A stretch of DNA of 64,000 nucleotides, taken from positions 4,191 through 68,190 of the forward strand of contig JAUWLF010000007.1 in assembly GCA_030613785.1 (NCBI GenBank). The letters are read 5' to 3'. Position numbers and translations under genes: made by a program. The stretch comes from Chloroflexota bacterium (GTDB taxonomy: Bacteria; Chloroflexota; Anaerolineae; UBA7937; B3-Chlor). Of this stretch, positions 9,792 to 55,935 are shown one piece after another; position 1 is the first letter of the stretch, and each line of letters opens with the position of its first letter. The notes under the pieces are model-generated. The model did no database searches, was not told the origin of the DNA, and saw nothing but the letters and a program-made list of their open reading frames with translations.

Positions 9792-9797
9792 TGCAAA

Positions 9798-9932
9798 GTC
9801 CGTGGCAGGTGCTCCGACACTTCGTCGCAGTCCTGTGAGTGCGCTCCCTGAGCGAGGACGGCGGCATAGGGGCGGCCGGGGGAACTGTCCTTTGCACGAC
9901 GAAGTCACTTGATCTGTCTGCCAAACTGGACG
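9798..9932 (+). ncRNA. Candidate structured 5' leader (cis-regulatory RNA)
   Basis: Nested complementarities GTCC/GGAC, TGGCAG/CTGCCA, ACTTCGTCG/CGACGAAGT and inner hairpins, starting at the predicted TSS. Confidence 0.4.
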
Positions 9933-9979
9933 AGCCACTTGGCCTCGGGGGGTCGAAAGACAGCATGGAGGGTGTGACC

Positions 9980-11581: not shown

Positions 11582-11596
11582 ATTGGCGAGGTCAGC

Positions 11597-12827: not shown

Positions 12828-12917
12828 GCACGTGGTTTCACTGGCGAACTCGATGGAAAGTCATCTCTCACCCGCCCAAGGAGGGAGATGCAGTCACGGA
12901 CTGGAGGATGGAGAAGT

Positions 12918-14972: not shown

Positions 14973-15010
14973 GCAGAGAGCGAGTCAATTCTCAATCCAG
15001 GAGGTATTCC

Positions 15011-16729: not shown

Positions 16730-16738
16730 CGAGGAAGC

Positions 16739-21761: not shown

Positions 21762-21762
21762 G

Positions 21763-27170: not shown

Positions 27171-27202
27171 TGAGCCTTTCTGGCAAAGGAGCAGAGTCTG
27201 AG

Positions 27203-39683: not shown

Positions 39684-39878
39684 CTAGAGGACAGAGGCTA
39701 GCAAGGGAGCCAAGAACGCCTCGGGCGTGACTGTGGGAAAGGGAGTCGGCGTGGGTGGAGAAGGTGGCGGCAGCATGGTGATCAGAGCTCCTATGGCCAT
39801 ACTGACCACCACCAAGATGCTCAGGATCAAGAAGATGATCTGACTGGTCTTGCGCTTTCGCGGACGTTTTCGAGCCAA
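39684..39878 (-). CDS. Small single-pass membrane protein with Pro/Thr-rich tail
   Basis: TTG start with GGAGG SD; basic N-terminus, hydrophobic helix, PPPSPPTPTP. Confidence 0.6.
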   Translation of the reverse strand: MARKRPRKRKTSQIIFLILSILVVVSMAIGALITMLPPPSPPTPTPFPTVTPEAFLAPLLASVL

Positions 39879-39969
39879 GTGCTTCCTCCCACTGTCTAAC
39901 TGGCATCTTATTATACGAGAGTTCCGCTGCCATCGCAAGGTCAGGGAGCGAGCCCGGTCTAGTCTGCAC

Positions 39970-39998
39970 TTGACATTGGTCTATAACGGTGATATTCT
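39970..39998 (+). promoter_or_regulatory. sigma70 promoter for the GAF kinase-gdh-regulator unit
   Basis: TTGACA-17-TATTCT with extended TG. Confidence 0.6.
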
Positions 39999-40059
39999 TA
40001 ATTGTTCGTGTGACGAGTTCCAGGCCCACCGAGAGGATACGTCAGGGGGTTGTACGGCC

Positions 40060-42390
40060 ATGTCCGCCGGAACGGCTGACGTCAAAGAACACGATGCGGG
40101 GATTTCCCAGCGTGAACTCACCGTCCTCGACGCGGTTTGCGCGCTAGCAGGAGAGTCACTGGAGCTGGAAGAGGTACTCAGCCTTGCCCTGGACAAGGTA
40201 TCGGAGATCGTGGGGGTTGGGCTAGCCTGCATCCACCTGGTTGATGAGGAAACTGGAGAATTGAAGCCCACGGCGCTCAGCAGGGCAGGCGAGGATTCCC
40301 TTGGACAAGCGAGCGTAACCCGGATGGTTGGAGGTCTCGCTCAACGTGTAACAGAGACAGGACACTTGTTAGTCGTTGAGGATATCTCGTCGGCTCCAGA
40401 CCGCTCAAGCCCCATCACCCAGGAAGAACCGCGTAGCTACGCCGGGGTGCCCCTCAAATGGAGGGGGAGGGTGCTAGGCGTGATCAGCGTGATCAGTCCT
40501 CAATCCCATCGATTCGCTCCAGCCCATCTAGGCTTCCTCACGACCATGGCTAGTCAGCTCGGCGGAGTCGTCGAGAATGCATTGCTCCGTGAGGAGCTTG
40601 GCAGTTCTCAGTTCCGGCTGCGAGAGCGGGTCAAGGAACTTAGCATTCTGTATGACGTCAGTCGGGAGGCTCTGGGTGCGCCGGATGTCAATTCGTTCCT
40701 GTCTCTTGTGGCACGACGATTGCCAGCCTCGATGCAGTATCAGCAAGCAGTGGCGGTCATCTTCTGCACGGCCGGCGGGAGTGGACACCTGGCTTGGTCA
40801 GACAATGTTGATGAAGCCATCGCCCAGCAGGTTCGCATTGTGCCCGGTGAGAAAACACTGGGGAGGCTTCTGGTTGACAGGGGGGTAGTCTTGGAGTACG
40901 AGATCTCCAGACTAGACGCCTTCTGGGCAGACTGCGATGTGAAATCCGTTCTCGCGGTTCCTGTGGCCGTCAATGGGCACACGGTGGGCTCGATCGGCGT
41001 GTACTATCTGAGCGACAAGTGGCGCTTCCTGGAGGAAGAGGAGTACCTTCTTCGTGGCATCTCCGAGCAGGTCTCACAGTTCATCGCCAGAGATGCAATC
41101 GAGCGGGAGAACCGCCGCCGCGCTCAAGAGATATCGACTCTCCTCGAAGCGTCCAAAGTTCTGGCTTCGGTGGTGAAGTTGGGGGACTTGCTACCTGCCA
41201 TCGAAGACACTCTGATGGAGACGCTGCAGCCAGCCGATGCGGGGGCTCTTCTGCTTTTCGATGAGGGGACTGGGATGCTCACGGTAGAATCCGCCTTTGG
41301 CTACGATATGAATGCCTTGCGCAGCACAAGCCTCCGGGTTGGCGAGTCTATGTCCGGCAAAGTCTTCGAGTCTGGGAAGGCCGAAGTGTGGGCCACGGCG
41401 GAGGAGTCGGCTTCTGCCATGGACAACATGACATCCCATAACCGGAGATACTTTGTGCAGGCATCTGGGGGGTTGGATCATCCAAGAAGCGCCATCGGAG
41501 TTCCGTTGGTCTATCGCGATGAGAAGATAGGCGTGCTCGCCTTGGAGGCGTTGCGAAGTGAGGTAGGATTCTCAATCTCACACCTCCCGTTCCTCCAGGC
41601 GTTGGCGGAACTGATAGTCATCAACGTGAGTCAGATTCAACTGCTGCAACAGACGGGGCAGACCAGGGCTGCCGAGGAAGCAGACCGTTTGAAGTCGGAA
41701 CTGATCGCGGCTCTAGCTCATGAAATGCGCACCCCGCTGACCTCGATACAGGGTTACACGTCCGCTCTGCTGCTGGAGGATGTGGAGTGGGATGAGGAGA
41801 CCAGGGCGAGGCATTTGCAGATCATCGACGAAGAAGCCAGGGAACTGCAAGAGATGATACAGGATTTGCTGGAATCCTCGATCATCGACGCGGGCTTGTT
41901 GTTGATAGAGAAAGAACCCACGCTGATCCCGCGCGTGGTAGAGGGACTTGTCAAAGAGATGACTCGTCGCACTGCAAGGCATCGTTTTGTGATTAGCTTC
42001 CCCTCCGACTTCCCGATAGTGGATGCCGACCCTCGTCGTCTCGAACAGGTGATGCGCAACCTGCTGGACAACGCGGTGAAGTATTCACCGGATGGCGGGC
42101 TCGTCGTGGTCAGGGGCCAGGTTGCTGGTGGCGAGGTGATCGTGAGTGTGGCCGACAACGGTATGGGCATCGCCCCTGAACACCTGAACAGGCTGTTCGA
42201 GAAGTTCTTCCGGGTGAAGTCGCCGCTGGGTGACCAAGTGAGAGGGTCAGGTCTGGGACTGCCCGTGTCGCGCACCATTGTGGAGAGCCACGGAGGAAGG
42301 ATTTGGGCCGAGAGCGAGCTGGGGAAGGGAACCACCATCTACTTCTCCTTGCCTGGCGAAGGATCGTACGTGGAAAGAGATCAAGATTGA
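40060..42390 (+). CDS. Multi-GAF cytoplasmic sensor histidine kinase
   Basis: Three GAF-like segments, [22 protein letters not shown] and GSGLGL. Confidence 0.92.
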
Positions 42391-42443
42391 CCGCTGGTCA
42401 ATTCGGAGAACTATGTAAGGAGAAACGTAAGGAGAAATGGAGA

Positions 42444-43694
42444 ATGTCTGAAGAGCTGAATCCTTTTGAGATCGCACAAAGGCAGCTGGATGAGGCGGCG
42501 GAGCTCCTGAAGCTTGGCCCGGGAATGCACGCCTTCCTACGAGAGCCGATGCGCGAACTGCACGTCAGCCTGCCAGTGAGAATGGACGATGGGTCGGTCA
42601 AGGTGTTCAAGGGCTTTCGAGTTCAATACAATGATGCCCGAGGGCCTGCCAAGGGCGGCCTGCGCTTTCACCCCGACGAGACCATTGACACAGTCCGGGC
42701 TCTCGCTGCGTGGATGACTTGGAAGACGGCGGTGGTGGACATACCCCTGGGCGGCGGTAAGGGTGGTGTCATCTGTAACCCTAAAGAGATGTCTCAGGCG
42801 GAACTCGAGAGAGTGAGTCGAGCGTACATCAGGCAAGTGGGACCGATTCTGGGACCGAAGCGAGACGTGCCGGCGCCAGACGTGTATACCAATCCCCAGA
42901 TCATGGCTTGGATGATGGATGAGTTTTCGGCGATGCAGGGCCATGGTGAACCAGGCGTGATCACCGGAAAGCCTCTTGCCCTCGGAGGATCCGCCGGCAG
43001 GATGGACGCCACCGCGAGGGGAGGCATGTATTGCCTGCGTGAGGCGGCCAAGATTCTGGGAATGGACCTAAAGGGTGCCACTGCTGCCATCCAGGGCTAC
43101 GGCAACGCCGGCTACTATGCCCAGGTTCTGGGCGAGGAACTGCTGGGGTTGAACGTAGTATGTGTCAGCGACTCGAAAGGTGCGATCCTTCGCGAAGATG
43201 GCCTGGAGTGTGAGCAGGTGAAGGCCCAGAAGGACGAGACAGGGACCTGCGTCGGTCTCTCCGATGCTGAGATCATCAGCAACGAGGAGCTATTGGAGTT
43301 GGATGTTGACGTCCTGATCCCTGCCGCGCTGGAGAACGTCATCACAGCCGAGAACGCTGATCGGGTGAAGGCGAAGATCGTGGTCGAACTCGCGAACGGC
43401 CCGACGACTCCCGAGGCCGACGAGATCCTTCACAAGAACGGCGTGTATGTCATCCCGGACTTTTTGTGCAATGCCGGTGGAGTAGTTGTCTCCTACTTCG
43501 AGGGCGTGCAGAACGCCTATAACTACTACTGGGAGCTCGAGGAGGTCCACGACAAGCTCGACAAGAAGATGACGGCGGCCTTCAAGGCTGTTCACCAGAC
43601 GGCTGAGGCCAAGAAGGTTCACAATCGCCTGGCGGCTTACTTGGTCGGAGTCGCGAGGGTAGCTGGGGCCGTCACGCTACGTGGTTGGGTGTGA
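42444..43694 (+). CDS. gdhA: Glu/Leu/Phe/Val dehydrogenase (glutamate dehydrogenase)
   Basis: [33 protein letters not shown] and [11 protein letters not shown]. Confidence 0.93.
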
Positions 43695-43758
43695 GCAACT
43701 CGCCTCATGGTGTAGGCGTTGAACTGGCGAGCATGATTCCAAGCTGACAGGCGGTGGA

Positions 43759-44466
43759 GTGAGGAAGGAAACCATCCTCGTAGTGGATGACGAACCGCGA
43801 CTGGTTAGGCTGGTGCGCGAGGTGCTCACGGCGGTGGGGTACGACGTGCTCAGTGCAGGCGAAGGCAAGGGCGCACTGGAAACCTTGGCCGTCGAGCAAC
43901 CAGATCTCGTGCTGCTGGACATAATGTTGCCTGGTGGCATGGACGGCTACGAGGTATGTAGCCAGGTGAGGGAGTTCTCGGCGGTTCCCATCATCATGTT
44001 GACCGCCAAGACTCGAGAGGTAGACATGCTTCACGGCTTCGATGTCGGCGCTGATGACTACCTGACCAAGCCTTTCAACGCCAAGGAGTTGATCGCCAGG
44101 GTGAAGGCCGTATTGCGTCGCAGCAAACTGCCGGGGAAGGAGGCAATGATCGCCGCCGATCTCACATGTGGCGATCTGGTTATCAGCTTCGCTCGGCGCA
44201 AGGTGAGGGTGCGGGGCCGCGAAACCGCTCTCACGCCCACGGAGTTCAGGTTGCTGCAACAACTGGCGCTCAACACCAACCGCGTCATGCTCCACGAGGA
44301 CCTGCTGACCAAGGTTTGGGGGTCGGAGTACCGTGATGACATTGATTACCTCAGAGCCTACGTGCGCCATCTGCGTCGCAAAATAGAAGAGGACCCCGCA
44401 GAACCCCAGTACATCCTCACCACACCAGGGGTGGGATATATGCTCTGCTGCCCTGAAGGAACCTGA
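43759..44466 (+). CDS. OmpR-family response regulator
   Basis: ILVVDDE, LDIMLP, GADDYLTKPF and winged helix. Confidence 0.94.
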   Translation: MRKETILVVDDEPRLVRLVREVLTAVGYDVLSAGEGKGALETLAVEQPDLVLLDIMLPGGMDGYEVCSQVREFSAVPIIMLTAKTREVDMLHGFDVGADDYLTKPFNAKELIARVKAVLRRSKLPGKEAMIAADLTCGDLVISFARRKVRVRGRETALTPTEFRLLQQLALNTNRVMLHEDLLTKVWGSEYRDDIDYLRAYVRHLRRKIEEDPAEPQYILTTPGVGYMLCCPEGT

Positions 44467-44508
44467 CCGTGGCCTCATAGAAGGCAGAATGGCACCGGAC
44501 CCCACGAG

Positions 44509-44540
44509 AAACCCGTGATTTTGCACGGGTTTTTCATTTT
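44509..44540 (+). terminator. Rho-independent terminator
   Basis: AAACCCGTG-loop-CACGGGTTT followed by a T-run. Confidence 0.75.
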
Positions 44541-44680
44541 CTACCCCCTCGTTTCTATGAGAACGCCATGGTTTCTCTGATAGAATGAAGCTGGCTTGAT
44601 GTGTCAGCTTGTGAGCACTTCACACTGTTCGCCTGATACTCGTGTGGTTGGATAGGGAGTAACTGCAAGGAGGGGTAAAG

Positions 44681-45172
44681 GTGAGTCTCCAACCGGCGGT
44701 TGATGTCAGCGAGATAGAGGATTTGCTGAACGGCAGGAAAGATGGTGAGAACGAATCCCTGATGAGCGTTCTCGAAGACGTCCAGGCTCGGTATCGGTAC
44801 CTACCGAAAGATGCTCTGATTCTGATCAGCGAGAGGATGGGTGTGCCTTTGAGCCAGGCGTACAGCGTGGCCACTTTCTATAACGCCTTCAGCTTGCAGC
44901 CCAAGGGTAGGCACGTCATTAGTGTCTGCCTGGGGACAGCCTGCATTGTGCGGGGGGCCAGAAAGGTCTTGGAGAGAGCCTCCGACAAACTGGGGATACA
45001 GCCAGGTGAAACGACGGAGGATGGCGAGTTCACTCTGGAAACAGTGAATTGCCTGGGGGCGTGCGCGCTCGGACCTGTGGCGGTGGTCGATGGCACCTAC
45101 TATGGGCAGATGAGCGGCCTCGAGGCGGATGCCTTGCTCCGCGAAGTAATGGGTGAGGCTGAGACGCTGTAG
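44681..45172 (+). CDS. NuoE/HydC-like [2Fe-2S] subunit
   Basis: VATFY, VCLGTAC and NCLGACALGP; extended -10 TGaTAGAAT at 44578-44586. Confidence 0.92.
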   Translation: MSLQPAVDVSEIEDLLNGRKDGENESLMSVLEDVQARYRYLPKDALILISERMGVPLSQAYSVATFYNAFSLQPKGRHVISVCLGTACIVRGARKVLERASDKLGIQPGETTEDGEFTLETVNCLGACALGPVAVVDGTYYGQMSGLEADALLREVMGEAETL

Positions 45173-45174
45173 CC

Positions 45175-47028
45175 ATGACGACAGTACGAACTCCAGACGA
45201 ACTGAAGCGTTTCAGAGAGACGCTAGTCGCCAGCAGGGACCCAGACAAGCTTCGCATTTCGGTCTGTTGTGGGACTGGCTGTCGGGTCTATGGGAGTATG
45301 AAGGTAAAGGAGGCGTTTTCAGAGGAGATTAACCGAAGGGGCCTGGACAACAAGATCGATATCATCAGCACCGGGTGTCACGGCTTCTGCGAAAAGGGGC
45401 CTGTGGTCGTTCTCAATCCTAGCGGGATCTTCTATCAACGCGTGGCCGTTGGTGATGTGTCGGACATTCTATCAGAGACCATGCTTGCGGGAACGGTGAT
45501 TGATAGACTGCTGTATGAAGATCCGGGCACGGGGGAGAGGATCGTCCATGAACATGACGTGCCCTTCTATCAGAAACAGCGGCGACTCGTACTGGATTTG
45601 AACGGTGACATCGATCCCACAAACATAGAGGACTATGTTGCCTTCGGTGGGTATTCCGCTTTGAGCAAGGTCGTGCAGGGAATGTCGCCGGAGGAGATCA
45701 TTGAGGAAGTCCGTAAGTCCGGCTTGAGGGGACGGGGGGGTGCAGGGTTTCCAACAGGCCTCAAATGGAAGCTCTGCAGGAAGGCAGAAGGAGACTCAAA
45801 GTACATTATCTGCAACGCGGACGAGGGCGACCCAGGCGCGTACATGGACCGCAGCATCATGGAAGGGAATCCTCATCGAGTGCTCGAGGGAATGATCATT
45901 GGTGCTCGCGCCATCGGTGCTCACGAGGGGTATGTGTACATCCGCAATGAGTACCCGCTGGCTGTTGAGAACCTGAGGATAGCGATAGCCCAAGCAGAAG
46001 CGTGCGGCTTCCTGGGCAAGAACATCCTGGGCTCGGGGTTTGATTGCTCGATCCACATACGACCCGGAAGTGGTGCCTTCGTCTGCGGCGAGGAGACCGC
46101 TCTGATGGCGTCCATCGAGGACAGAGTAGGTGAGCCCAAGCCACGGCCTCCCTATCCGGCGGTGAGCGGTCTGTGGGGCAAGCCGACGAACATCAACAAC
46201 GTGGAGACCTGGGCCAACGTGCCTATCATCATTGAGCGAGGAGGAGATTGGTACTCTCAGATAGGGAGTGCCGACAGCAAGGGAACGAAGATATTCTCCG
46301 TGGTAGGCAATATCAACAACACGGGCTTGGTTGAGGTGCCCATGGGAGCCACCTTGTCAGAGATCGTGTACGACATTGGAGGAGGCATCCCGGGGGGAAA
46401 GGCGTGCAAGGCAGTTCAGCTAGGAGGGCCGTCGGGGGGCTGTATACCCCGAGAGCATTTCGATGTTCCCATTGACTATGAGTCCCTCCAAGAACTGGGC
46501 TCGATTATGGGTTCAGGAGGAATGGTTGTCTGTGATGAAGACACGTGCATGGTGGAGTTCGCCAGGTTCTTCATGAACTTCGTGCAAGAGGAATCTTGCG
46601 GCAAATGTGTCCCCTGCCGTCTGGGGACCAAAGCTATGCTGGACGTGCTAACCAGGATCACCGAGGGAAATGGTCAGGATGGCGACATCGAATACCTGCT
46701 GGAACTGGGAGAGCAGATCAAGGAATCCTCCCTCTGCGGCTTGGGGCAGACAGCGCCAAATCCAGTGCTCTCGACGATAAGGTATTTCCGTGACGAATAC
46801 GAGGCTCACATCCAGGACGCGTGCTGTCCGGCTCACGTGTGTAAGCCTCTGATTCAGTACTCGATAGACGTGGAGGCATGCACCGGCTGTGGCCGATGCC
46901 TTCGCGCGTGTCCAGTGGAGGCCATAAGCGGGGCAAAGAAGGAAACCCACATCATAGATCAGGAGAAATGCATCAAGTGTGGGTCCTGTCTTGAGGTGTG
47001 CAAGTTCGATGCGGTCATGGTGGAGTAG
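45175..47028 (+). CDS. NuoF/HydB-like FMN/NADH subunit with N-terminal [2Fe-2S] and C-terminal 2x[4Fe-4S] (bifurcating type)
   Basis: GRGGAGFPTG, NADEGDPGAYMD, GAFVCGEET, GGPSGG, ESCGKCVPCR and C-terminal ferredoxin. Confidence 0.93.
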   Translation: MTTVRTPDELKRFRETLVASRDPDKLRISVCCGTGCRVYGSMKVKEAFSEEINRRGLDNKIDIISTGCHGFCEKGPVVVLNPSGIFYQRVAVGDVSDILSETMLAGTVIDRLLYEDPGTGERIVHEHDVPFYQKQRRLVLDLNGDIDPTNIEDYVAFGGYSALSKVVQGMSPEEIIEEVRKSGLRGRGGAGFPTGLKWKLCRKAEGDSKYIICNADEGDPGAYMDRSIMEGNPHRVLEGMIIGARAIGAHEGYVYIRNEYPLAVENLRIAIAQAEACGFLGKNILGSGFDCSIHIRPGSGAFVCGEETALMASIEDRVGEPKPRPPYPAVSGLWGKPTNINNVETWANVPIIIERGGDWYSQIGSADSKGTKIFSVVGNINNTGLVEVPMGATLSEIVYDIGGGIPGGKACKAVQLGGPSGGCIPREHFDVPIDYESLQELGSIMGSGGMVVCDEDTCMVEFARFFMNFVQEESCGKCVPCRLGTKAMLDVLTRITEGNGQDGDIEYLLELGEQIKESSLCGLGQTAPNPVLSTIRYFRDEYEAHIQDACCPAHVCKPLIQYSIDVEACTGCGRCLRACPVEAISGAKKETHIIDQEKCIKCGSCLEVCKFDAVMVE

Positions 47029-47042
47029 AGAGGCTGTTGCGC

Positions 47043-47726
47043 ATGATAACCTTGACGATTGACGGTCAGGAGATGGAAGCCCTGGAGGGGTCAACCCTAT
47101 TGGAGGCGGCGCGAGAGAACGGTATTGAGATACCCACGCTGTGCTACCACGAGGCGCTGGAGCCTTACGGTGGGTGTCGGCTCTGTGTGGTCGAGTTAGT
47201 GGGCTCAAAGGGGTCGACGTTGGTTGCTTCCTGCGTGCACCCCGCGGAGGAGGGTGCAGTGGTGAGGACCGATTCGGAGATGGTCCGGAGATCTCGCTGT
47301 ATGACTGTAGAACTGCTGTTGGCTGCCGCGCCCAACGCGAAAGTGATTCAAGACCTGGCGGCCCAGATGGGGGTTGAAGAGCCAAGGGTAAGGCTGGGGG
47401 ATAACGACTGCATCTTGTGTGGCTTGTGCGTGCGAGCCTGCAACGAGATAGTGGGCGCCAACGCCATCAGCTTGGTCAATCGGGGTTTTGTGAAAGAGGT
47501 GAAGCCTCCCTTCGAGATCGGATCCAACGCCTGCATCGGCTGTGCGACCTGTGTGCTTGTTTGCCCGACGGGGGCGATCAAGCTGGACGATGTGCTCACC
47601 AACAGGTCTGTGCATGAGTGGGAGTCGGATTTCGAGGCCAGGGCGTGCAAGATCTGTGGTGACCACTACTTGGCGCCTGAGTCAAGGGAGGACTCTCAAG
47701 CGTTACTCCGTGAGGGAGAAGGCTAG
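47043..47726 (+). CDS. Short NuoG-N-terminus/HoxU/BamI-like Fe-S subunit
   Basis: PTLC...GGCRLCVVE...ASC [2Fe-2S]; CILCGLCVRAC and CIGCATCVLVCP; no catalytic domain. Confidence 0.88.
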   Translation: MITLTIDGQEMEALEGSTLLEAARENGIEIPTLCYHEALEPYGGCRLCVVELVGSKGSTLVASCVHPAEEGAVVRTDSEMVRRSRCMTVELLLAAAPNAKVIQDLAAQMGVEEPRVRLGDNDCILCGLCVRACNEIVGANAISLVNRGFVKEVKPPFEIGSNACIGCATCVLVCPTGAIKLDDVLTNRSVHEWESDFEARACKICGDHYLAPESREDSQALLREGEG

Positions 47727-47761
47727 CGTCAGGCTGCCTTGTTGGGAGAGGAGCGTTCGAA

Positions 47762-49903
47762 GTGGACCATGAGAGCGAAACCAGGATCGGGGTTTTCATC
47801 TGCGATTGTGGAAGGAAGATCGCGGAATTCCTAGATGTCGCTCAGCTTGAGAGCCGTGCGGAGGACATTCCCGACGTGGTCTTGGTGCAGCGGGAGCGAT
47901 ATTGCTGTTCCAAGAAAGGGCTTTATGAGATCAAGGAGGCCATTGGAAAGCACGGCCTGAACCGCATCGTTGTGGCGGGCTGCACGCCTAGGACTCATGA
48001 ACATCTCTTCGAAGCGGCGCTGGAAGAGGCAGGGTTGAGTGGCGACCTCTTCGAGATGGCAAACATCAGGGAGCAATGTGCCTGGGTGCACGCCGACGAC
48101 CAGGCGGCAGCGACTAGTAAGGCGCTTGACCTGATAAGGATGGGCGTGGCCAAGGTCGCATTGGTGCACCCGGGACAAGGGTTACAGATCAATGTAACTC
48201 CTGCCGCCCTGGTGATCGGAGGGGGAATAGCGGGCCTCACAGCTGCCTTGACTGTAGCCAATGGAGGCTTTCCTGTCATATTGGTGGAAAAGGAGGAGCG
48301 GCTGGGAGGGCAAGTTGCAAAACTACACAAGCTCTATCCCGGCGATCGAAGCGCCAGGGAGTTCGTTGGACAGAGAGTAGAGTCAGTGAAAGATCATCCG
48401 GCTATTGAAACCTTCCCTGGCGGGAGGGTGGTGGACATCAGTGGTTCGGTTGGGGACTACCGGATCACCGTTGAGCAGGAGGGTGGGACGTCCAAGCTCA
48501 ACGTGGGTGCTATCATCGTCGCCATTGGGGCTCAGGAGTGCAAGCCGGATGAGAGGTTTGGACATGATGGAGCCAGGGTCATCACCCAGCTCGAGCTAGA
48601 GGAGGCACTGCGAGAGCGGACGGTGGATGCGCAACGAATCGTAGTAATCCTGGACGGGGCGGGCATGCCTGGGCGCTCAGCCCTACCAGCCACGACTGCG
48701 TTAAAGAACTCCATCCTGTTGAAGCGTGGAGACACGAAGATGGAGGTCTCGGTACTGTACAAGAGCCTGAGCGCTGATCTCAGCGAGAAACAGATTAGAG
48801 AAGCGAGGGATCTGGGAGTGCGTTTCGTTAGATATGGCGAGCGGGCAACACCGATTGTGAAGGACAAGGCGGTGGAAGTGTACGACCAGGCACGTGGTGA
48901 GGAAGCGATCATACCTTACGATCTGCTAGTGCTGGCGCTGCCTCTTGTTCCCAGGGAGGATGTCGCGAAGACGGCCACTTTGCTTAGAACGTCGCTAGAC
49001 AGAAATGGTTTCGTCCTGGAGCCGAACGTGCGACTACGGCCGGGGACTTATGTGCCAGATGGCGTCTACGTTTGCGGCAGTGCTCACTATCCGGCGGGTG
49101 TGGACGAGAGCGTGTTCCAGGCCTACAGGGCAGCTGCCAAGACGTTGCACTATCTGTCCGAGGGGCGTGTTGGCAGCGAGGCGGCCCCAGCTATGGTGAT
49201 CGAGGAACTCTGCACGGGATGCGGTATCTGTGTAAGGGCTTGTCCTTTCCAAGCGATCAGCATGGAAGAGAGGAACGGAATCCTCAGCGTCTGCAGGATT
49301 GAGCCCTCACTGTGCAAGCGCTGTGGCAACTGCGTGGTGGAGTGTCCAGTGAAGGCCATTGTCATGGAACCCTACACGGATAGGGAACTGATTGCTCAGA
49401 TCAATGCTGCTTTGGCTTTCCCTGCCGGCGCTCAACCGCGCATGCTGGCTTTCTTGTGTGAGTGGAGTGGCTATGCGGCGGCGGACCTGGCTGGGGCTGA
49501 AGGACGTCAGTATTCGGCAGATGTCCGGATCATCCCGTTGGGTTGCTCGGCACGGTTCGACCCTTATCACATCCTCTGGTCTTTCCTCCAAGGTGCCGAT
49601 GGCGTTCTGGTGGGCGCTTGTGATCCGGGGATGTGCCACTACGTGGAAGGCAATCGGTATGCCAAGCAGAGGGTTGAGACGCTTCGGAAGATGCTGAAGG
49701 AGAGTGGGTTTGACCCCAGAAGGCTGAGTCTGCACTGGTTCAAGCCGGATGATGCACAGGGGTTCGTTGAGGCTGTGACGGAGTTCACGGAAGAGATTGA
49801 GCACCTGGGGCCTAGTCACCTGCACTCAGGCAGCGTAGGAGCCTGGGATGCTCCTCTCATCACTGCTTCCCTCTTATCACCAGCCATGGCGGGCAAGTCA
49901 TAG
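47762..49903 (+). CDS. HdrA-like flavoprotein fused to C-terminal ferredoxin and MvhD domain
   Basis: GVFICDCG, AGCTPRTHE, NIREQCAWVH, GGGIAG; 2x[4Fe-4S]; MvhD motifs FLCEWS..AAD, CSARF and GACDPGMCHY. Confidence 0.9.
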   Translation: MDHESETRIGVFICDCGRKIAEFLDVAQLESRAEDIPDVVLVQRERYCCSKKGLYEIKEAIGKHGLNRIVVAGCTPRTHEHLFEAALEEAGLSGDLFEMANIREQCAWVHADDQAAATSKALDLIRMGVAKVALVHPGQGLQINVTPAALVIGGGIAGLTAALTVANGGFPVILVEKEERLGGQVAKLHKLYPGDRSAREFVGQRVESVKDHPAIETFPGGRVVDISGSVGDYRITVEQEGGTSKLNVGAIIVAIGAQECKPDERFGHDGARVITQLELEEALRERTVDAQRIVVILDGAGMPGRSALPATTALKNSILLKRGDTKMEVSVLYKSLSADLSEKQIREARDLGVRFVRYGERATPIVKDKAVEVYDQARGEEAIIPYDLLVLALPLVPREDVAKTATLLRTSLDRNGFVLEPNVRLRPGTYVPDGVYVCGSAHYPAGVDESVFQAYRAAAKTLHYLSEGRVGSEAAPAMVIEELCTGCGICVRACPFQAISMEERNGILSVCRIEPSLCKRCGNCVVECPVKAIVMEPYTDRELIAQINAALAFPAGAQPRMLAFLCEWSGYAAADLAGAEGRQYSADVRIIPLGCSARFDPYHILWSFLQGADGVLVGACDPGMCHYVEGNRYAKQRVETLRKMLKESGFDPRRLSLHWFKPDDAQGFVEAVTEFTEEIEHLGPSHLHSGSVGAWDAPLITASLLSPAMAGKS

Positions 49904-49919
49904 AGCAGGGGGATACGTT

Positions 49920-51101
49920 ATGTCGAAGCTGTTGGAAAGGGACGTCTGGGTACTGGACAGGTGTGCTGGCTGCGGCCTCTGCATCGCTACTTGCTCCAAA
50001 GGCATGCTGTACTGGGATGGGGAAGGAGGACATCCGGCAAAAGAGATGAGGCAGAAAACCATCGGTCTGACCACGATTCCCTTTGATAGTTGCACTTTCT
50101 GCCGGGCGTTTTGTGAGCAGACCTGTCCCCGGCTCCACGAGTGGGAGGGATTGCCGGCCAGACAAGTGGTGTCCGCAAAGACCAAAGGCGTCACGGACAG
50201 CGGCGAGCCCAACGAAGTGATTAGGAATCTGTTGATCGCTGGCCTCTCGGCGGGCCTGATTGATGGGGCAATCATGAGCTGTATGGATGGGTGGACTGTG
50301 CAGCCCCTAGCCAAGGTCTTGACGAGCGTGGAGGAAGTCGCGGATTGTCTGGGCGTGCAAGGGCTGTGGGTGCCCACGTTGGGCGTGCTCAATGAGGCGG
50401 TCTACGAAAGGAAGCTTCGCAGAATCGCGGTCATCGGGGCTCCGTGTGCGAGCGAGGCGATCAGAACGCTGCTGGCTTCACAGGACGAGAGACTGAACCC
50501 GTACAAGGAGGCGATAGCGCTGACGATTGCCACCTTCTGCACGGGGGTGTACTACCCGAGGCCTGTGTTCGAGTACCTCGAGGAGATGCTGGGCATTTCC
50601 CGCCAGGATGTGAAGAGGGCGTATGCGTCACCACGGGACAAAGAACTGAGGGTGGTGCTGTGGAATGACTCAACGAAGACGGTCCCTCTAGCCAAGATAG
50701 AAGGGCATACCCGGCCAGGCTGCGCCAGTTGTGATGATTTCCTGGGGGAGTCGGCCGACATCAGCGTGGGCAAGGTGGGTGCGAAAGATGAGCATTGCAC
50801 ACTCATGACCCGGAGCGAGGTTGGCGATCAATGCCTGCAAAACGCGCTCGATTTTGGACTGCTGGAGGTGGTGGACGAAGTGGATGAGGAGGCCTTGAGG
50901 AGAGCGAAGGAGGACAAGGAGCGCAGAGACAGAGCTGAAGCCTTCGATGAACTGATGTTGACGATGTTGGATGCTCTGAGGGAGCCTCAGAAACAAGCTG
51001 AGGTCAGGGAGAAGTTCGTACGACTGTATGAGGTGGATCGCGTGCCTGAACGCACAGAGGAGGGACAGCGCTATGACCCATGTGCTGGATGTCAAGGGTA
51101 A
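49920..51101 (+). CDS. FrhB/FdhB-like (F420-oxidoreductase beta-type) Fe-S protein
   Basis: N-terminal ferredoxin; GAPC, ATFC and GCASCDDF..ADISVG FrhB-type cluster motifs. Confidence 0.8.
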   Translation: MSKLLERDVWVLDRCAGCGLCIATCSKGMLYWDGEGGHPAKEMRQKTIGLTTIPFDSCTFCRAFCEQTCPRLHEWEGLPARQVVSAKTKGVTDSGEPNEVIRNLLIAGLSAGLIDGAIMSCMDGWTVQPLAKVLTSVEEVADCLGVQGLWVPTLGVLNEAVYERKLRRIAVIGAPCASEAIRTLLASQDERLNPYKEAIALTIATFCTGVYYPRPVFEYLEEMLGISRQDVKRAYASPRDKELRVVLWNDSTKTVPLAKIEGHTRPGCASCDDFLGESADISVGKVGAKDEHCTLMTRSEVGDQCLQNALDFGLLEVVDEVDEEALRRAKEDKERRDRAEAFDELMLTMLDALREPQKQAEVREKFVRLYEVDRVPERTEEGQRYDPCAGCQG

Positions 51102-51744
51102 GGAGCTCAGAGCCGCGAGCAATCAGTTGAAGGAGGCACTCGCCAAGAACCCGACCACCGTGAAGAACGCCTCTCACTTGCACGGCCTGTGCGGAGGGCT
51201 CAAGTCCGGGGACGTGACCATACAGGGCGACAGTGGCGACTACTTGGCTGTGCTCAATGATGGAGCTGTCATCAGAGTGACCGGCAGCGCTGGCAAGTAT
51301 GTGGCCGATAATATGACCGAAGGAAAGGTTCTGGTCGAAGGGGATGCCGACTACGGAGCGGGTCAGTATTGCTATGGCGGTACTGTGGTCGTCAAGGGTA
51401 GCGCTGGCGACTTCGCCGGCACCATGAACAAGGGAGCGACCATCATCGTCGGTGGAGACGTAGGTGATGAGGTTGGTACGTACATGGTTGGTGGAGATGT
51501 GGTTATCGCGGGTGACGCTGGACGGAATCTCGGCAATTATCTGATCAGAGGGAATATCTATATCAAAGGGGATTGGGCGAGTTTGGGGCATAACTGCAAG
51601 GTCGAAAACGTTGCCGCTGAGGACGGCCAGAGGTTGGAGGCGCTGTTGGCAGAACATGGCATGGCTGGGAATGGGAAGGATTTCCGGAAGATAACACCTG
51701 TGTCGGACAAGCCCTTCTACTCTCATGAGGAGGCAGAACAATGA
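51073..51744 (+). CDS. GXGXG beta-helix protein (glutamate synthase domain 3 / FwdC-like)
   Basis: Repeated V.G.AG.Y.G..M.GG motifs. Confidence 0.88.
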   Translation: MTHVLDVKGKELRAASNQLKEALAKNPTTVKNASHLHGLCGGLKSGDVTIQGDSGDYLAVLNDGAVIRVTGSAGKYVADNMTEGKVLVEGDADYGAGQYCYGGTVVVKGSAGDFAGTMNKGATIIVGGDVGDEVGTYMVGGDVVIAGDAGRNLGNYLIRGNIYIKGDWASLGHNCKVENVAAEDGQRLEALLAEHGMAGNGKDFRKITPVSDKPFYSHEEAEQ

Positions 51745-53285
51745 CCACTGTTGGTGCGTTCTGTGTGACTCTTGATCGAGAGCGATGCATAAACTCTCGC
51801 ATGCCTGGGAAGTGCGCCGCTTGCGTAGAGGTATGTCCGTACGGGGTCTTCAGTCTCAATGGCCACAACGAGGTGGTGATACAGAACTACAACACGTGTG
51901 TAGGTTGCCGGATATGTGTGGAGTTCTGTCCTGAGGATGCCATCCGTATCAACCCCGCGGAGTCGGAGATCGTTTCCAGATATCCATGGACTTTTGGGGC
52001 CATGGAGGAGATCCATCATAAGGCATTGACGGGAGACTATCTGCTGAGAGGCTTCGGCACGATGGGACCTACGCCCCACTTCGATAACATCGTGGTGGTG
52101 CCTTCACAGCTTGCCTCCCCTGCCCCGAGGGACAAGTATCGCGAGGAATGCAACATGGAGGTCGTCATAGGTGAGGAGACCTGCGAGAAGCCTATCAGAC
52201 TGCAGTATCCCCTCATCTTCCCAGCCATGTCGTACGGCGCTCTTTCCAAGGAGGCGAAGCTGGCGCTGGCTATCGGGGCGGCCAAGACGGGCATCATGAC
52301 CAATACCGGCGAGGGCGGCGTGGTCGAAGAGGAACCGTATTACGCCAAAGGCTTCGAGAGACCGAATGGCTCTAGACAGAGGTGGCGTCCGGGAGGCTAC
52401 CTGGCGATCCAGTGGTCCACAGGGCGATGGGGCGTATCGGCCGACTATGTCAACGCCGGCGATGCCGTGGAAATCAAGATTGGGCAGGGGGCGAAACCAG
52501 GAATGGGGGGGCACCTCCTGGGAGAGAAGGTGACGGAGGACATAGCCAGGATCCGTGGCATACCTGTGGGCAGCGATGCCCTTTCCCCGTGCCGGTACTA
52601 TGATGTCCTGGCCCCTGAGGATATCAAGAAGCAGGTTGATTTCTTGAGGGACATTACCAACTACGAGAAGCCGATATTGATGAAGCTGGGGCCTAGCAGG
52701 CCCTACGAAGATGTGAAGATGGCAGCTCTGGCTGGCGTGGATGCCATCTCGATTGATGGCCTCGTCGGCGGAACCGGTTGCTCACCGGATGTCGTGACGC
52801 AGGGCGTAGGCATACCTACCATTGCTTGCATAGGGCCAGCCGCCAGGGCCCTCAAGGATCTGGGGTTGCACCGCAAGGTGAAGCTCTTCGCGCTGGGTGG
52901 CATGAGGAATGGATTGGATGCCTTCAAAGCCATAGCCATGGGCGCCGACGGGGTGGGTTTCGGCACAGCGGCTCAAATAGCTATGGGGTGTCGAGGCTGT
53001 ATGGCTTGCCATCAAGGCGACTGCCCCTACGGCATCACGTCCCAGAACCCTAAGATGACTGAGGGTCTGGATCCCGAAGAGATCGGTCAGCGCCTGGCGA
53101 ACTTCATCAGGGCTACGGCAGAGGAGGTCAAGATTCTGACCATGCTCTCGGGGCACAGTGACATACAGGAGTTGAGCGAGGAAGACCTACGGGCACTGGA
53201 CGTAAACACTGCTGCCATAACTGGTTTGAAGCTGGTGGGCTATGAGCGTGCTTTGCCCTGGTGGGAGAATGGCCAGGGAAGCTAG
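51741..53285 (+). CDS. Archaeal-type glutamate synthase FMN-binding subunit with N-terminal 2x[4Fe-4S]
   Basis: MSYGALS, NTGEGG, EIKIGQGAKPGMGGHL, IARIRG, DG..GGTG, KAIAMGAD and CRGCMACHQGDCPYGI. Confidence 0.9.
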   Translation: MTTVGAFCVTLDRERCINSRMPGKCAACVEVCPYGVFSLNGHNEVVIQNYNTCVGCRICVEFCPEDAIRINPAESEIVSRYPWTFGAMEEIHHKALTGDYLLRGFGTMGPTPHFDNIVVVPSQLASPAPRDKYREECNMEVVIGEETCEKPIRLQYPLIFPAMSYGALSKEAKLALAIGAAKTGIMTNTGEGGVVEEEPYYAKGFERPNGSRQRWRPGGYLAIQWSTGRWGVSADYVNAGDAVEIKIGQGAKPGMGGHLLGEKVTEDIARIRGIPVGSDALSPCRYYDVLAPEDIKKQVDFLRDITNYEKPILMKLGPSRPYEDVKMAALAGVDAISIDGLVGGTGCSPDVVTQGVGIPTIACIGPAARALKDLGLHRKVKLFALGGMRNGLDAFKAIAMGADGVGFGTAAQIAMGCRGCMACHQGDCPYGITSQNPKMTEGLDPEEIGQRLANFIRATAEEVKILTMLSGHSDIQELSEEDLRALDVNTAAITGLKLVGYERALPWWENGQGS

Positions 53286-53411
53286 TACGCTGCTTGGCAG
53301 CGGAGACCTGCTGTTGTGCGGACTGCTCAGCTCCGAGTGGGGACACACAGGCGTGAATGGCGCATCACTACAGCGGTTGTTGAAGGCAATACTACCAGGA
53401 AAGGAGAAAAG

Positions 53412-53984
53412 ATGAACGCGGTTACTGCTGGTGCTGTCATGACACGTGAAGGAGGCGAGATGGGCACGGTCAATATCGATGCCGCTGCAATCGGCGGTAT
53501 GGTGGAGAACGCTCTGGTGTTCTGCGCCCAAAAGGCGCGGCTGCAGGATGGAGAGGATGCCGTGAAGGCCATCCAAAGCGGAGATTGTGTTACCTGTGGC
53601 TACCTGAGGTACGGCCTATGCAAGGGGATTGGCGAATACCTGGGTAGTATAGACGACTCGGTGCGGGCGGTGTATGCCTACGATCCTGACTATTGCACTG
53701 ATGCGCACCACCTTGATGGCCGGGAGCGAGCGGGTGAGCGGGGGATCAACGTTGTTGTCTCCGTGGATCACAGGAGCGCTGCTTTGACTTCCATTGTCGC
53801 GTCCCTGGAGGACGCTGTGAGGGAGGGTGTAAGGCCTCTTGTCTGCTCCAAGGCCAATGGTTCCTGCTACGCTCTGGATGTGAAAGTCGCGGATGCGGAA
53901 GAAGTGGCCTCCAGACGGGGCTACGGAGCGCTTATCTCCTCTCTCTACGTGGCACCGCTCAAGGTCTGGGCGAGGGGCGAATAG
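53412..53984 (+). CDS. Hypothetical protein with CxxC motif
   Basis: AAGGAG SD; coding-like composition; last co-oriented gene of the redox cluster. Confidence 0.65.
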   Translation: MNAVTAGAVMTREGGEMGTVNIDAAAIGGMVENALVFCAQKARLQDGEDAVKAIQSGDCVTCGYLRYGLCKGIGEYLGSIDDSVRAVYAYDPDYCTDAHHLDGRERAGERGINVVVSVDHRSAALTSIVASLEDAVREGVRPLVCSKANGSCYALDVKVADAEEVASRRGYGALISSLYVAPLKVWARGE

Positions 53985-54337: not shown

Positions 54338-55138
54338 CTAGAAGGCTTCTAACGTACCCCGACGCTTGGCCAGCATCTCGAACCAACTGAAAAGCAGGTA
54401 GCCTGTGGCGACATAGCACATGCCGATCAGGATCTCCCCGGCCAGGAAAGGAGCTACTTCCACGAGATTGGCACCGGCGATGACCTGGCGAGCAGCTTGG
54501 ATGCCTCTGGTCAGAGGCAGGAGGTGGGCCGCTCTCTGGACCCAAACGGGGAAGTTCGCCAGGGGCACATTGGCGCCACTGAAGACCAGTAGCAGGAAGT
54601 AGACGGTGTTGTTGATGAACATGACGTTCACCGTCACCAGGCTCAGACAGCCCATCAGCAGACCGAAGCCCGCGGTGCTGACTGTGGTGATGAGGATGGT
54701 GAGTGCCAGAAGTGGCAGATCTGCCTTTGAGTAGTCAACCCCTAGAAGCAAACCAGCCCAAACGAGACCCATGATTACTCCCAGCATACCATCGAGGATG
54801 TGGACGAGGGATCTTCCCAAGAAGGTGAGCAGGCGGTTCGCAGGGCTGCCGAAGAGATAGATCAACGTACCCTCGTTGCGTTCCCCACCAATGCTCATGG
54901 TGACTCCGTAGATGCCGCTCATGGGCGTCAACTGTATGGCGTTACCGATGGCGTAGAAGCTGGCGGTGTCGGGGCCGGTGGCGAAGGTGCCCAGCAAAGT
55001 GAAGAACAGTATCTGGCTGAGGGGCGCTATGACCTTCGTGGCGAGATATGGCTCCAATCTGAACCAGCGGAATAGGGCCTTGTAGGAGAGAACCGCGCCA
55101 CTGAAGAATATGCGAGCGGAGTTCGAGAACCTCTTCAT
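54338..55138 (-). CDS. ABC-2 type exporter permease
   Basis: ERNEGTL, FSGANVP and LPLTRGI; about six TMs. Confidence 0.88.
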   Translation of the reverse strand: MKRFSNSARIFFSGAVLSYKALFRWFRLEPYLATKVIAPLSQILFFTLLGTFATGPDTASFYAIGNAIQLTPMSGIYGVTMSIGGERNEGTLIYLFGSPANRLLTFLGRSLVHILDGMLGVIMGLVWAGLLLGVDYSKADLPLLALTILITTVSTAGFGLLMGCLSLVTVNVMFINNTVYFLLLVFSGANVPLANFPVWVQRAAHLLPLTRGIQAARQVIAGANLVEVAPFLAGEILIGMCYVATGYLLFSWFEMLAKRRGTLEAF

Positions 55139-55151
55139 ACCAGTAGGTACC

Positions 55152-55935
55152 TCACATCAAGCTCAGAGTGGCATCCACACGTGCCCGACGAAGCACGACA
55201 GTGAAAAGACGGTAGGAGATCGCGATGTATGCGCCGCCGAGAAGCAGCATCATGGCCCAGCACAGGAGTATGTCAGGCACAGTAGCCAGCCCGCTGCTTG
55301 TGAGGTGGAGTGCTCTGGCCGCCCAATAGGGCGCCAGAATGTAGCTGACCGGGTTCGTTCAGCCCGGCAGCAGTAGGATTGGGAACAGGAAACCTCCCAG
55401 GATGTACATCGGGTATTCCAGGGCGTTCACCCAGCCGGTCAGAGACAGGTTGACCGCCATCAGGGGCGAGATTAACAGACCAAAGGATATGAAGGCCAGC
55501 ATGGTTATCACCAGAGAGGCGAAGAAGGGAAGTGGCTGCGCGATGGTCAGGGGGAGGCGGAACACGAGGGCCGCCACAGAGTAGCTACGTATCATGGAAA
55601 GGAGAGACACGCTGACACTAGCCAACGTCTTGCCGATGACGACGGTGCCCGAGGAAGTTGGGCTGGCCACTATGCCTTCCAGGGTCCCCATGAACCGCTC
55701 GGTATTGATATTGAAGGTCCCTCTGAAAAGCAGACTGGTCCATAACCCCGTCATGCCGCTGCCGACGACTACATAGATGCCACGGGAGATGTCTTGTCCC
55801 TTCAGCATGTAGATGGCCATGGTCGCGATGAGCAGGGGCTGTATCACCACGCCGAAGATCATGAACAGGTCTACAGCCTGCTGCTTGATGTCCAGTACGA
55901 AAGCAATGCGAACGACTCCGCAGGTTCGCTATCAT
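55152..55935 (-). pseudogene. Disrupted ABC-2 permease (frameshift near start and in-frame TGA)
   Basis: MIANLR shifts frame into VVRIAFVLDIKQQAVDLFMIFG; TGA at 55359-55361 is followed by in-frame TNPVSYILAPYWAARALH...DATLSLM*. Confidence 0.8.

Follow-up and report, generated by a model that had tools for sequence, protein, structure and literature searches.

A conserved Anaerolineae operon for a candidate ammonia-dependent 2-oxoglutarate/glutamate oxidoreductase complex linked to NAD(H) and ferredoxin

Results

Gene content of the locus

The window analysed here is a 64,000-nt stretch of contig JAUWLF010000007.1 from a Chloroflexota bacterium of the class Anaerolineae, and all coordinates below are positions in it. 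The genome to which it belongs is a metagenome-assembled genome (MAG) of 184 contigs, with a completeness of 95% and a contamination of 6.6%. Our subject is an operon of eight genes at 44681..53984, all on the plus strand, in which a core of the glutamate synthase (GltS) type lies next to a set of flavin and iron-sulfur (Fe-S) electron-transfer subunits. Domains were called with Pfam and NCBIfam, and starts were corrected from ortholog lengths, an alignment (A2) and ribosome-binding sites.

The operon opens with a NuoE/HydC/BfuC-like [2Fe-2S] subunit (44681..45172; PF01257 2Fe-2S_thioredx, 161 bits), followed by a NuoF/HydB/BfuB-like NAD(H)-flavin mononucleotide (FMN) subunit (45175..47028; Pfam Complex1_51K, NADH_4Fe-4S and SLBB) and a short NuoG/HoxU/BfuA-like Fe-S subunit that has no catalytic domain (47043..47726, in an open reading frame [ORF] from 46998; Fer2_4 and two Fer4 domains). 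Next comes an HdrA-MvhD fusion (47762..49903) with an HdrA-like flavin adenine dinucleotide (FAD) domain, Fer4 and FlpD/MvhD (147 bits). The last of the electron-transfer genes encodes an FrhB-like flavo-Fe-S subunit with an N-terminal 2x[4Fe-4S] domain (49920..51101, ORF from 49848; PF04432 FrhB_FdhB_C, 101 bits). The GltS-type genes are a GXGXG subunit, equivalent to GltS domain 3 and to an FwdC-like beta-helix (51073..51744, ORF from 51028), and an FMN/synthase subunit that also carries an N-terminal 2x[4Fe-4S] domain (51741..53285). A small protein of ~190 aa without a Pfam family closes the operon (53412..53984). A first-pass annotation, made from the letters of the window, had assigned this interval to the first seven genes. 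Pfam finds each of the seven where that annotation put it; the eighth gene, in the last 570 nt, had gone undescribed.

The start of NuoG at 47043 follows from ortholog lengths and ribosome-binding sites and that of FrhB at 49920 from alignment A2; for GXGXG, AGGAGG precedes the ATG at 51073 and orthologs are ~221 aa long. After these corrections the only true overlaps are FrhB/GXGXG (29 nt) and GXGXG/GltS (ATGA, 4 nt). The tight spacing described earlier stands, and its overlaps come down to two. Pfam detected no hydrogenase, formate dehydrogenase, HdrBC (CCG), aldehyde oxidoreductase or amidotransferase gene in 44681-53984 or in the three upstream genes at 39850-44466, which agrees with the earlier statement that the cluster is without hydrogenase, formate dehydrogenase, HdrBC, BamB-type and amidotransferase genes.

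The glutamate synthase core

The FMN subunit matches PF01645 (Glu_synthase) with 351 bits against a cut-off of 20.4, over profile positions 48-367 of 369, and aligns with residues 848-1155 of Azospirillum brasilense GltB at 147 bits. Its gene is the sole real PF01645 gene in the window's genome. The partner subunit matches PF01493 with 66 bits (cut-off 32.5). Two GltS motifs are present in the FMN subunit, GAKPG (250) and IARIR (268). The Lys of the first and the second Arg of the second align with A. brasilense GltB, and both are kept across the clade described below; they are the putative 2-oxoglutarate-binding residues of GltS, as which the first-pass annotation had listed this Lys and an Arg of IARIR. 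A literature search on the names of GltS active-site residues gave no result. Three cluster Cys align with C1102/C1108/C1113 of 1ea0, and a fourth completes a CxxCxxCxxxxCP motif that is conserved in the clade. The aligned Cys of the FMN domain are presumably [3Fe-4S] ligands.

Absence of an amidotransferase

PF00310 has no match in the window's genome. Among 61 relatives of that genome, 20 bearing the cluster and 41 without it, PF00310 matched none of the 20 as against 16 of the 41. Archaeal-type amidotransferase subunits score weakly on this family (30-52 bits), and we therefore built a dedicated profile, A4, from six such subunits of other Chloroflexota. Profile A4 gave 490-630 bits on six relatives without the cluster and 390-630 bits on such subunits in other genomes; the window's genome gave no match. 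In the 20 genomes with the cluster its only real match (147 bits, in G009) sits in an 890-aa protein of an unrelated locus, which has its own 830-aa FMN protein and an ANTAR regulator. Three further genomes (G002, G019 and G035) yielded just 19-27 bits, in ORFs of 618-667 aa that we take as putative GlmS-like proteins. A tblastn search of the window's genome with the GltB N termini of relatives returned nothing of at least 50 bits. The expectation that no separate amidotransferase accompanies the cluster was thus borne out by PF00310, A4 and tblastn in the window's genome and by PF00310 in the cluster-bearing relatives, and an ordinary GOGAT with a remote amidotransferase was set aside for this genome. 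Glutamine synthetase is present in it. In the window's Anaerolineae family, G009 excepted, the cluster-type enzyme is the only GltS-like enzyme.

The locus in G009 (L137, G009:C197, 447-7991) is a GltS-like system of another kind, with a GAF histidine kinase and an ANTAR response regulator. Its 830-aa protein ends in a GltS FMN domain, and an 878-aa protein combines an amidotransferase-like N terminus with a GXGXG part. In five further relatives the amidotransferase profile picks up ORFs of 855-944 aa.

Conservation and distribution in Anaerolineae

We compared 19 bacterial loci: those of 16 fetched relatives, the window and two from Anaerolineae MAGs. Gene order is unbroken in all 19, of which 12 are complete from NuoE to GltS and 7 are cut by contig ends. 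The 12 complete loci, from several families of the class, all run contiguously as NuoE-F-G-HdrA-FrhB-GXGXG-GltS, with no other catalytic gene between or beside. The association is not chance, and the Glt subunits co-occur with the electron-transfer module in every locus, as first proposed. Of the operon's proteins, GltS is conserved best, at 85-89% within the family, and HdrA worst, at 56-65%. In one locus (L065, G043:C542, 2004-5231) the NuoF frame measures 1076 aa and ~1.5 kb separate the NuoF and NuoG matches, which could reflect an insertion or an extra domain in that lineage.

The FrhB-like gene occurs in 20 of the 61 relatives, among them every one of the 15 other family members and four genomes from different families of the class. 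Among species-representative genomes the closest FMN subunits are those of two Anaerolineae MAGs (72-73% identity) and one Methanomassiliicoccales MAG (61%). No other FMN subunit above 45% identity was found in 401 evenly drawn Chloroflexota, a sample that missed family members known to carry the cluster. The FMN-subunit clade is frequent in metagenomes, with 570 proteins at E <= 1e-100 among 7999 candidates scored, and the top 120 are at least 71% identical. Near-identical DNA is present in cold-seep and marine-sediment runs from several studies. Contigs from one RNA library, 90-99% alike, cover pieces of most genes and bridge NuoG/HdrA (47578-48086) and FrhB/GXGXG (50832-51093); this is a hint of transcription in relatives, with DNA carry-over as a possible source. 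Stretches of the operon that these contigs do not cover carry no weight either way.

A separate clade with archaeal variants

In a maximum-likelihood tree of 25 FMN subunits, for which the program warns of long-branch effects, the 13 cluster-type subunits form one group with support of 85/81, rising to 99/99 without the row of a hydrogenase-linked variant. The window FMN subunit is 36-40% identical to the canonical ones of other Chloroflexota, whose operons encode a flavoprotein, an amidotransferase, the FMN subunit and GXGXG and lie beside NrpR or an OmpR-like regulator, amtB, glnB and glnA.

The clade also occurs in Thermoplasmatota, in 4 of 301 sampled genomes, and there the electron-input genes differ by locus. 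In three of the loci the FMN and GXGXG core stands with HdrA-MvhD and FrhB and without NuoEFG. One of these (L006) has a FAD/Fer4 protein followed by HdrA-MvhD, FrhB, GXGXG and GltS. In another (L104) the FAD/Fer4 protein, HdrA and MvhD are fused into 1185 aa, followed by FrhB, GXGXG and GltS and adjoined by an aminotransferase. The third (L105) has upstream Hdr-like genes and then HdrA-MvhD, FrhB, GXGXG, GltS, the small protein and glutamate dehydrogenase (GDH). The fourth locus (L106, G479:C5, ~5568-12035) is built differently, with a GDH-like gene, an unknown gene, GXGXG, the small and large subunits of a NiFe hydrogenase, and GltS. No amidotransferase was found in its genome, and by its sequence it is a candidate H2-dependent, ammonia-dependent glutamate synthase. 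Judged by this variant, the core looks like a plug-in module to which different electron donors can be attached. A canonical and complete amidotransferase-FMN-GXGXG operon is also present in three of the four archaea, on a different contig. Because of that operon, the cluster-type enzyme in these archaea would be a paralog with its own role rather than the cell's GOGAT.

The NuoEFG module

NuoE has four Cys at 83, 88, 124 and 128. NuoF has an N-terminal thioredoxin-like 2Fe-2S piece (residues 23-101), two C-terminal Fer4 domains with [4Fe-4S] motifs (563-613) and the motifs GDPGAYM (218), KIF (372) and GGPSG (417); motif scan and Pfam together confirm the residues and extra clusters reported for it at first reading. 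It matches solved bifurcating B subunits of the NiFe-HydABCSL, HydABC, NfnABC and Stn types over its full length with 681-852 bits, the best being 7t2r_B (852 bits), 7q4v_B, 8a6t_B, 9n5u_B (NfnB) and 7p5h_B. Complex I NuoF reaches 393 bits in the core only, about half the score of the bifurcating subunits. With NuoE and the short NuoG, which are HoxE/HoxU-like in NCBIfam at scores below the cut-offs, a BfuABC-like set results. For the NAD/ferredoxin-coupled complex that had been proposed, the likeness to HydB and NfnB speaks in favour, while the coupling itself and any bifurcation are carried over from these homologs.

HdrA-MvhD, FrhB and coenzyme F420

The HdrA-MvhD fusion consists of an N-terminal domain, a thioredoxin-reductase-like FAD domain, a C-terminal ferredoxin domain and an MvhD [2Fe-2S] domain (558-687). 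Against 8rvu, residues 5-239 correspond to HdrA 10-244 and residues 239-556 to HdrA 320-658; 5odc_A was aligned too. HdrA residues ~245-320, which form the inserted ferredoxin domain with two [4Fe-4S] clusters, have no counterpart in the window protein. In the solved Mvh-Hdr structure this domain is the branch to ferredoxin. Judged from Pfam positions, the spacing from FAD motif to C-terminal Fer4 is similarly short in the archaeal HdrA of L006. An HdrA paralog on contig C26 of the window's genome retains the inserted ferredoxin domain, with an insertion of ~76 aa where the operon's HdrA lacks it.

The genome has at least six further HdrA-like genes besides that of the operon. The one on C26 (~7000-17000, L107) lies among HdrBC-like CCG proteins, MvhD, NuoE, NuoF and a NuoG fused to the catalytic subunit of a formate dehydrogenase. 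HdrA there is in two ORFs, the formate dehydrogenase part is also split, possibly at a selenocysteine codon, and a lipoate-protein ligase gene adjoins. Contigs C98 and C21 each have a NiFe hydrogenase large-subunit gene a few kilobases from an HdrA paralog, an Mvh-Hdr-like arrangement.

The FrhB-like subunit is a distant relative of the solved F420-reducing hydrogenase beta subunit (85 bits). Neither CofE (PF01996, TIGR01916) nor CofH (TIGR03551) has a match in the window's genome, and the same profiles match in control methanogens and a haloarchaeon. F420 is therefore an unlikely substrate, and the F420 role once considered for FrhB is unsupported; we set aside an F420-dependent enzyme on the strength of this negative in a 95%-complete genome. 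From its sequence we read the subunit as a probable flavin/Fe-S relay. A two-chain prediction of FrhB with GltS, an approach the first-pass annotation had suggested for the complex, scored 0.58 (runs 0.65, 0.58 and 0.54), with 0.00 for the best of three controls. The runs share at least 90% of contacts, and partner pLDDT (a per-residue model confidence) is at least 79. Of 80 solved complexes 58 reach the mark used for this score, as do 2 of 110 mismatched pairs; at or below 0.60 it is reached by only 7 of the 80 and by both mismatches. The pair stands above its controls, and the score lends weak support to a contact between the modelled chains.

The small eighth protein

Wherever the contig reaches, the small protein directly follows GltS; a hidden Markov model search found 19 ORFs in 18 loci, one of them archaeal. 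Its AlphaFold2 (AF2) model, built from 17 sequences, has a pLDDT of 81. The top Foldseek matches are MNT/nucleotidyltransferases (probability 0.85-0.97, E 0.02-0.2), and VIA gives 2rff first (Z 7.1) with GlnE domains at Z ~5. Thus, at middling scores, the modelled fold is likely nucleotidyltransferase-like. Bacterial copies keep a GDCxxCxYLRYGL motif and two further Cys (alignment A1), and the archaeal copy in L105 has the GS...D.N pattern typical of nucleotidyltransferases, which is lost in the bacterial ones. The protein may be a degenerate regulatory or assembly subunit. We also considered it as a hidden glutaminase and rejected this; it has no Pfam or NCBIfam family, its fold matches, at middling scores, are to nucleotidyltransferases, and a protein atlas search yielded nothing usable.

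Neighbouring genes

Upstream on the same strand lie a histidine kinase with three GAF stretches (39850..42390; HisKA and HATPase_c), a glutamate dehydrogenase gene, gdh (42444..43694; ELFV_dehydrog; NCBIfam GdhA_Arch 617 bits, under the cut-off of 750), and an OmpR-type response regulator (43759..44466), all called with Pfam. The longest ORF of gdh starts at 42303; the ATG at 42444, with AAGGAG, fits the 415-418 aa of its orthologs. The gdh gene noted early on as lying beside the cluster is thus in place. The kinase is kept upstream in all loci that are long enough. In nine bacterial loci, the window and eight others, gdh sits between kinase and regulator; in L004 it is downstream of the cluster, and in three loci from other families kinase and regulator stand without gdh. 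The association with gdh recurs independently in Anaerolineae and in two Thermoplasmatota loci (L105 and, with a GDH-like gene, L106). The kinase/regulator pair probably controls the operon together with gdh, the kinase being the likely sensor. A terminator-like hairpin (44506-44535) and a promoter-like site (44557-44586) lie 3' of the regulator; both are consensus matches, not enriched over shuffles.

Farther upstream lies a long same-strand island of genes for the catabolism of amino acids and heterocycles (9839-35306, plus strand). A methylmalonyl-CoA-mutase-like large subunit is encoded there with a B12-binding subunit, and so are two family III CoA-transferases, hydantoinase/oxoprolinase A and B, a pyridoxal phosphate enzyme, two acyl-CoA dehydrogenases and an epimerase. 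The island also has an indolepyruvate-type 2-oxoacid:ferredoxin oxidoreductase (19851-22314), a class I/II aminotransferase (27170-28318) and two molybdoenzymes of the xanthine-dehydrogenase/4-hydroxybenzoyl-CoA-reductase type with FAD, 2Fe-2S and molybdenum cofactor subunits. On the other side of the operon, downstream of an ABC ATPase, a pair of ABC-2 membrane-protein ORFs of 266 and 167 aa sit side by side at 54338-55862 on the minus strand; the second covers the family profile only in part and may belong to a split gene.

Discussion

We judge it somewhat probable, at slightly better than even, that the eight genes encode an ammonia-dependent 2-oxoglutarate/glutamate oxidoreductase complex linked to NAD(H) and ferredoxin. 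The analysis shows the gene content and its conservation, the lack of amidotransferase and F420 genes, the recurrent gdh association and the separate clade; the physical complex, its substrates, its electron path and its direction are what we infer here. The gene products would form one soluble multi-flavin Fe-S complex, expected to carry 2 FMN, 2 FAD and more than 15 Fe-S clusters, whose catalytic core is the GltS-type FMN subunit with its GXGXG partner. Since this core would work without a glutamine amidotransferase, the chemistry at the FMN would be based on ammonia: 2-oxoglutarate + NH3 + 2e- <-> L-glutamate via 2-iminoglutarate, that is, the glutamate dehydrogenase reaction carried out by a flavin/Fe-S enzyme. 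Electrons would pass from the GltS FMN through its cluster and N-terminal 2x[4Fe-4S] domain to the FrhB-like FAD/Fe-S subunit, and from there via HdrA-MvhD (FAD) and the short NuoG to the NuoF/NuoE core. That core would bind NAD(H) and, by homology with Bfu enzymes, ferredoxin. The net reaction would be 2-oxoglutarate + NH4+ + NADH + reduced ferredoxin <-> glutamate + NAD+ + oxidised ferredoxin.

We slightly favour the reductive, or synthase, direction. The enzyme family is one of synthases, and no GOGAT was found in these Anaerolineae. The hydrogenase-linked archaeal variant also favours this direction, because H2 can drive amination only. For the oxidative direction one can cite the catabolic island with its aminotransferase and indolepyruvate-type oxidoreductase, similar neighbours in two other loci (L005 and L104) and the coexistence with canonical GOGAT in archaea. 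Neither Rnf nor an FeFe hydrogenase was found in the window's genome, which we likewise count for oxidation. A substrate cycle with GDH as a substitute for Nfn was considered and dropped; the genome has GltD/NfnB-like genes.

From textbook potentials we estimate an E0' of ~-130 mV for 2-oxoglutarate + NH4+/glutamate. By the same estimate, the reduction of two NAD+ by glutamate and reduced ferredoxin would be energetically well matched. This would correspond to a bifurcating/confurcating glutamate dehydrogenase: glutamate + reduced ferredoxin + 2 NAD+ <-> 2-oxoglutarate + NH4+ + oxidised ferredoxin + 2 NADH. In such an enzyme the GltS core would stand in for HdrBC on the high-potential side of the HdrA-type flavin, with NuoEFG as the NAD(H) arm. 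In amino-acid-degrading sediment Anaerolineae it would pair glutamate made by transaminases with ferredoxin that 2-oxoacid oxidoreductases have reduced. If true, this would be a new family of flavin-based bifurcating enzymes, an outcome to which we give a rather low probability.

Several points weigh against an ammonia-dependent complex of this kind. Every function in it is assigned by homology, the coupling to NAD and ferredoxin and any bifurcation included, and the source is a MAG with contamination and many contigs. The predicted contact between FrhB and GltS has a complex score in the weak band. With the inserted ferredoxin domain missing from HdrA, canonical HdrA-type bifurcation to ferredoxin is doubtful. 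By our own estimate, NADH-driven ferredoxin reduction coupled to amination would be near zero or unfavourable at cellular concentrations, and a third substrate at -130 mV would misfit the usual Bfu scheme. In the three archaea with HdrA-MvhD and FrhB, the canonical amidotransferase might serve in trans. Finally, a branch of 2.1 changes per site separates the cluster-type FMN subunits from canonical archaeal-type GltS, and their nearest tree neighbours are two proteins in N-methylglutamate-pathway-like contexts. Together, the long branch and these N-methylglutamate-synthase-like neighbours make a substrate other than NH3 and 2-oxoglutarate possible.

The FMN/GXGXG core might, with the same electron-transfer subunits, act on another imine or amine substrate, for example in a reductive alkylamination of 2-oxoglutarate of the N-methylglutamate type, on a different 2-oxo acid, or by oxidising an N-substituted glutamate. 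The tree neighbours, with GATase_6/7 and SoxD/SoxA-like genes around them and 44-45% identity, agree with this idea, as do the name 'methylamine-glutamate N-methyltransferase subunit C' given to some clade entries by one database source and the finding of the organism in cold-seep and marine-sediment runs. Yet gdh adjacency in three separate arrangements points to glutamate, 2-oxoglutarate and NH3, Pfam finds no MgsA-like, GmaS or Mgd gene in the cluster, and the tree join carries the long-branch warning. The Lys and Arg of the GltB site are kept as well, but MgsC-type enzymes also bind glutamate, so these residues do not discriminate. On balance we regard a different substrate as unlikely. 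Alternatively, two or more separate enzymes might share the operon, with NuoEFG-HdrA-MvhD serving another partner and a simpler FrhB-GXGXG-GltS enzyme fed directly by ferredoxin. Archaeal versions without NuoEFG do indicate that the module is separable, a second HdrA-MvhD-NuoEFG set, paralogous and in the same genome, goes with formate dehydrogenase and HdrBC-like genes, and FrhB-GltS is the sole contact modelled, with its weak score. What makes this arrangement quite improbable in our view is the contiguity from NuoE to GltS in 12 of 12 complete loci, with no other catalytic gene between or next to these genes, together with the short NuoG that has no catalytic domain of its own. In archaeal L006 and L105, moreover, HdrA-MvhD lies directly 5' of FrhB-GXGXG-GltS, and in L104 it is fused to a further flavoprotein.

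A further alternative is that the operon encodes an ordinary glutamine-dependent GltS of the archaeal type, whose amidotransferase has its gene elsewhere, is missing from the assembly or has diverged beyond recognition. The MAGs are indeed incomplete (68-95%), archaeal-type amidotransferase subunits are weak on PF00310, and three cluster-bearing archaea have such a subunit elsewhere. Against this, profile A4 has no match in the window's genome, nor any of this type in the other 19 relatives that bear the cluster; the archaeal amidotransferases belong to complete operons of their own, each with a second FMN and GXGXG subunit; canonical Chloroflexota operons adjoin amtB, glnB, glnA and NrpR, which the window operon does not; and the FMN subunit is of a different clade. 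We consider this explanation very improbable. The ammonia-dependent, NAD(H)- and ferredoxin-linked complex stays our preferred reading.

It is useful to contrast the operon with the known systems that it resembles. With archaeal-type split GltS it shares a PF01645 FMN subunit with the Cys cluster motif and a separate GXGXG subunit; it differs in that no amidotransferase was found in operon or genome, in its electron-donor module and in lacking the amtB/glnB/glnA neighbourhood. MgsABC has GltS-like FMN and GXGXG subunits as well, and proteins in MgsC contexts are the nearest sampled relatives. Mgs, however, has an amidotransferase-like MgsA and no external electron-transfer subunits, whereas the window cluster has N-terminal Fe-S domains, three extra flavoproteins and gdh next door. 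The N-methylglutamate pathway to which Mgs belongs is treated in the relevant sections of PMC6237917. In methanogens and anaerobic methanotrophic (ANME) archaea, the FGltS(I/II) and FrhB10-GltS clusters place an FrhB-family subunit beside GltS; the passages on these clusters propose the use of glutamine and F420H2 for FGltS, with the amidotransferase kept, a proposal that is itself unproven (PMC3448663, PMC3087415, PMC9012536). The window cluster likewise has a PF04432 protein next to its GltS genes, but it differs in having no amidotransferase, in its HdrA-MvhD and NuoEFG and in the lack of any CofE or CofH found in its genome.

Among Bfu enzymes the closest parallel is Bam-Bfu, the class II benzoyl-CoA reductase BamB-I, which according to the main text of a Bfu survey contains an HdrA module and MvhD; F420-, Por-, Wor-, Rub- and other types are listed there too (PMC9304861). 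Bam-Bfu and the window operon share NuoE, NuoF and a short NuoG with the full set of extra clusters, an HdrA-type flavoprotein and MvhD. The Bam-Bfu partner is the tungsten aldehyde-oxidoreductase-like BamB with a substrate at -620 mV, whereas the window has a GltS core whose substrate we place at ~-130 mV. The word 'glutamate' does not occur in the main text of the survey, the part to which this check applies. MvhADG-HdrABC shares the N-terminal, FAD and C-terminal ferredoxin domains of HdrA and MvhD; the window cluster differs in having no HdrBC, no hydrogenase and no inserted ferredoxin domain, and its GltS core would fill the position of HdrBC. Acceptors of the two would have similar potentials, our estimate for 2-oxoglutarate/glutamate lying close to the -140 mV of the heterodisulfide. 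The latter value is the one in the main text of the survey (PMC9304861).

By its sequence, the operon stands apart from canonical GltS, having no amidotransferase, from bifurcating HdrA enzymes, having neither inserted domain nor HdrBC, and from FGltS, having no F420 genes in its genome; at the domain level it agrees with Bfu. The literature that we searched contains no prior description of the combination or of an amidotransferase-less GltS clade, the only related items being the methanogen/ANME FrhB-GltS proposals and GltD-type fusions. The pieces are all of known families; the combination and the clade are apparently undescribed in that literature, in line with the novelty claimed for the complex at first reading.

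Glutamate and 2-oxoglutarate form the hub at which carbon and nitrogen metabolism meet, and textbooks give two routes to it, GDH and GS-GOGAT. If our reading is true, the operon would add a third route between ammonia and glutamate, one in which the electrons pass through ferredoxin- and NAD-linked flavoproteins. The few partners of Bfu- and HdrA-type complexes would then be joined by a substrate of central metabolism. Overall, such an enzyme may matter for the way in which the abundant Chloroflexota of the subsurface deal with amino acids, ammonia and reducing power.

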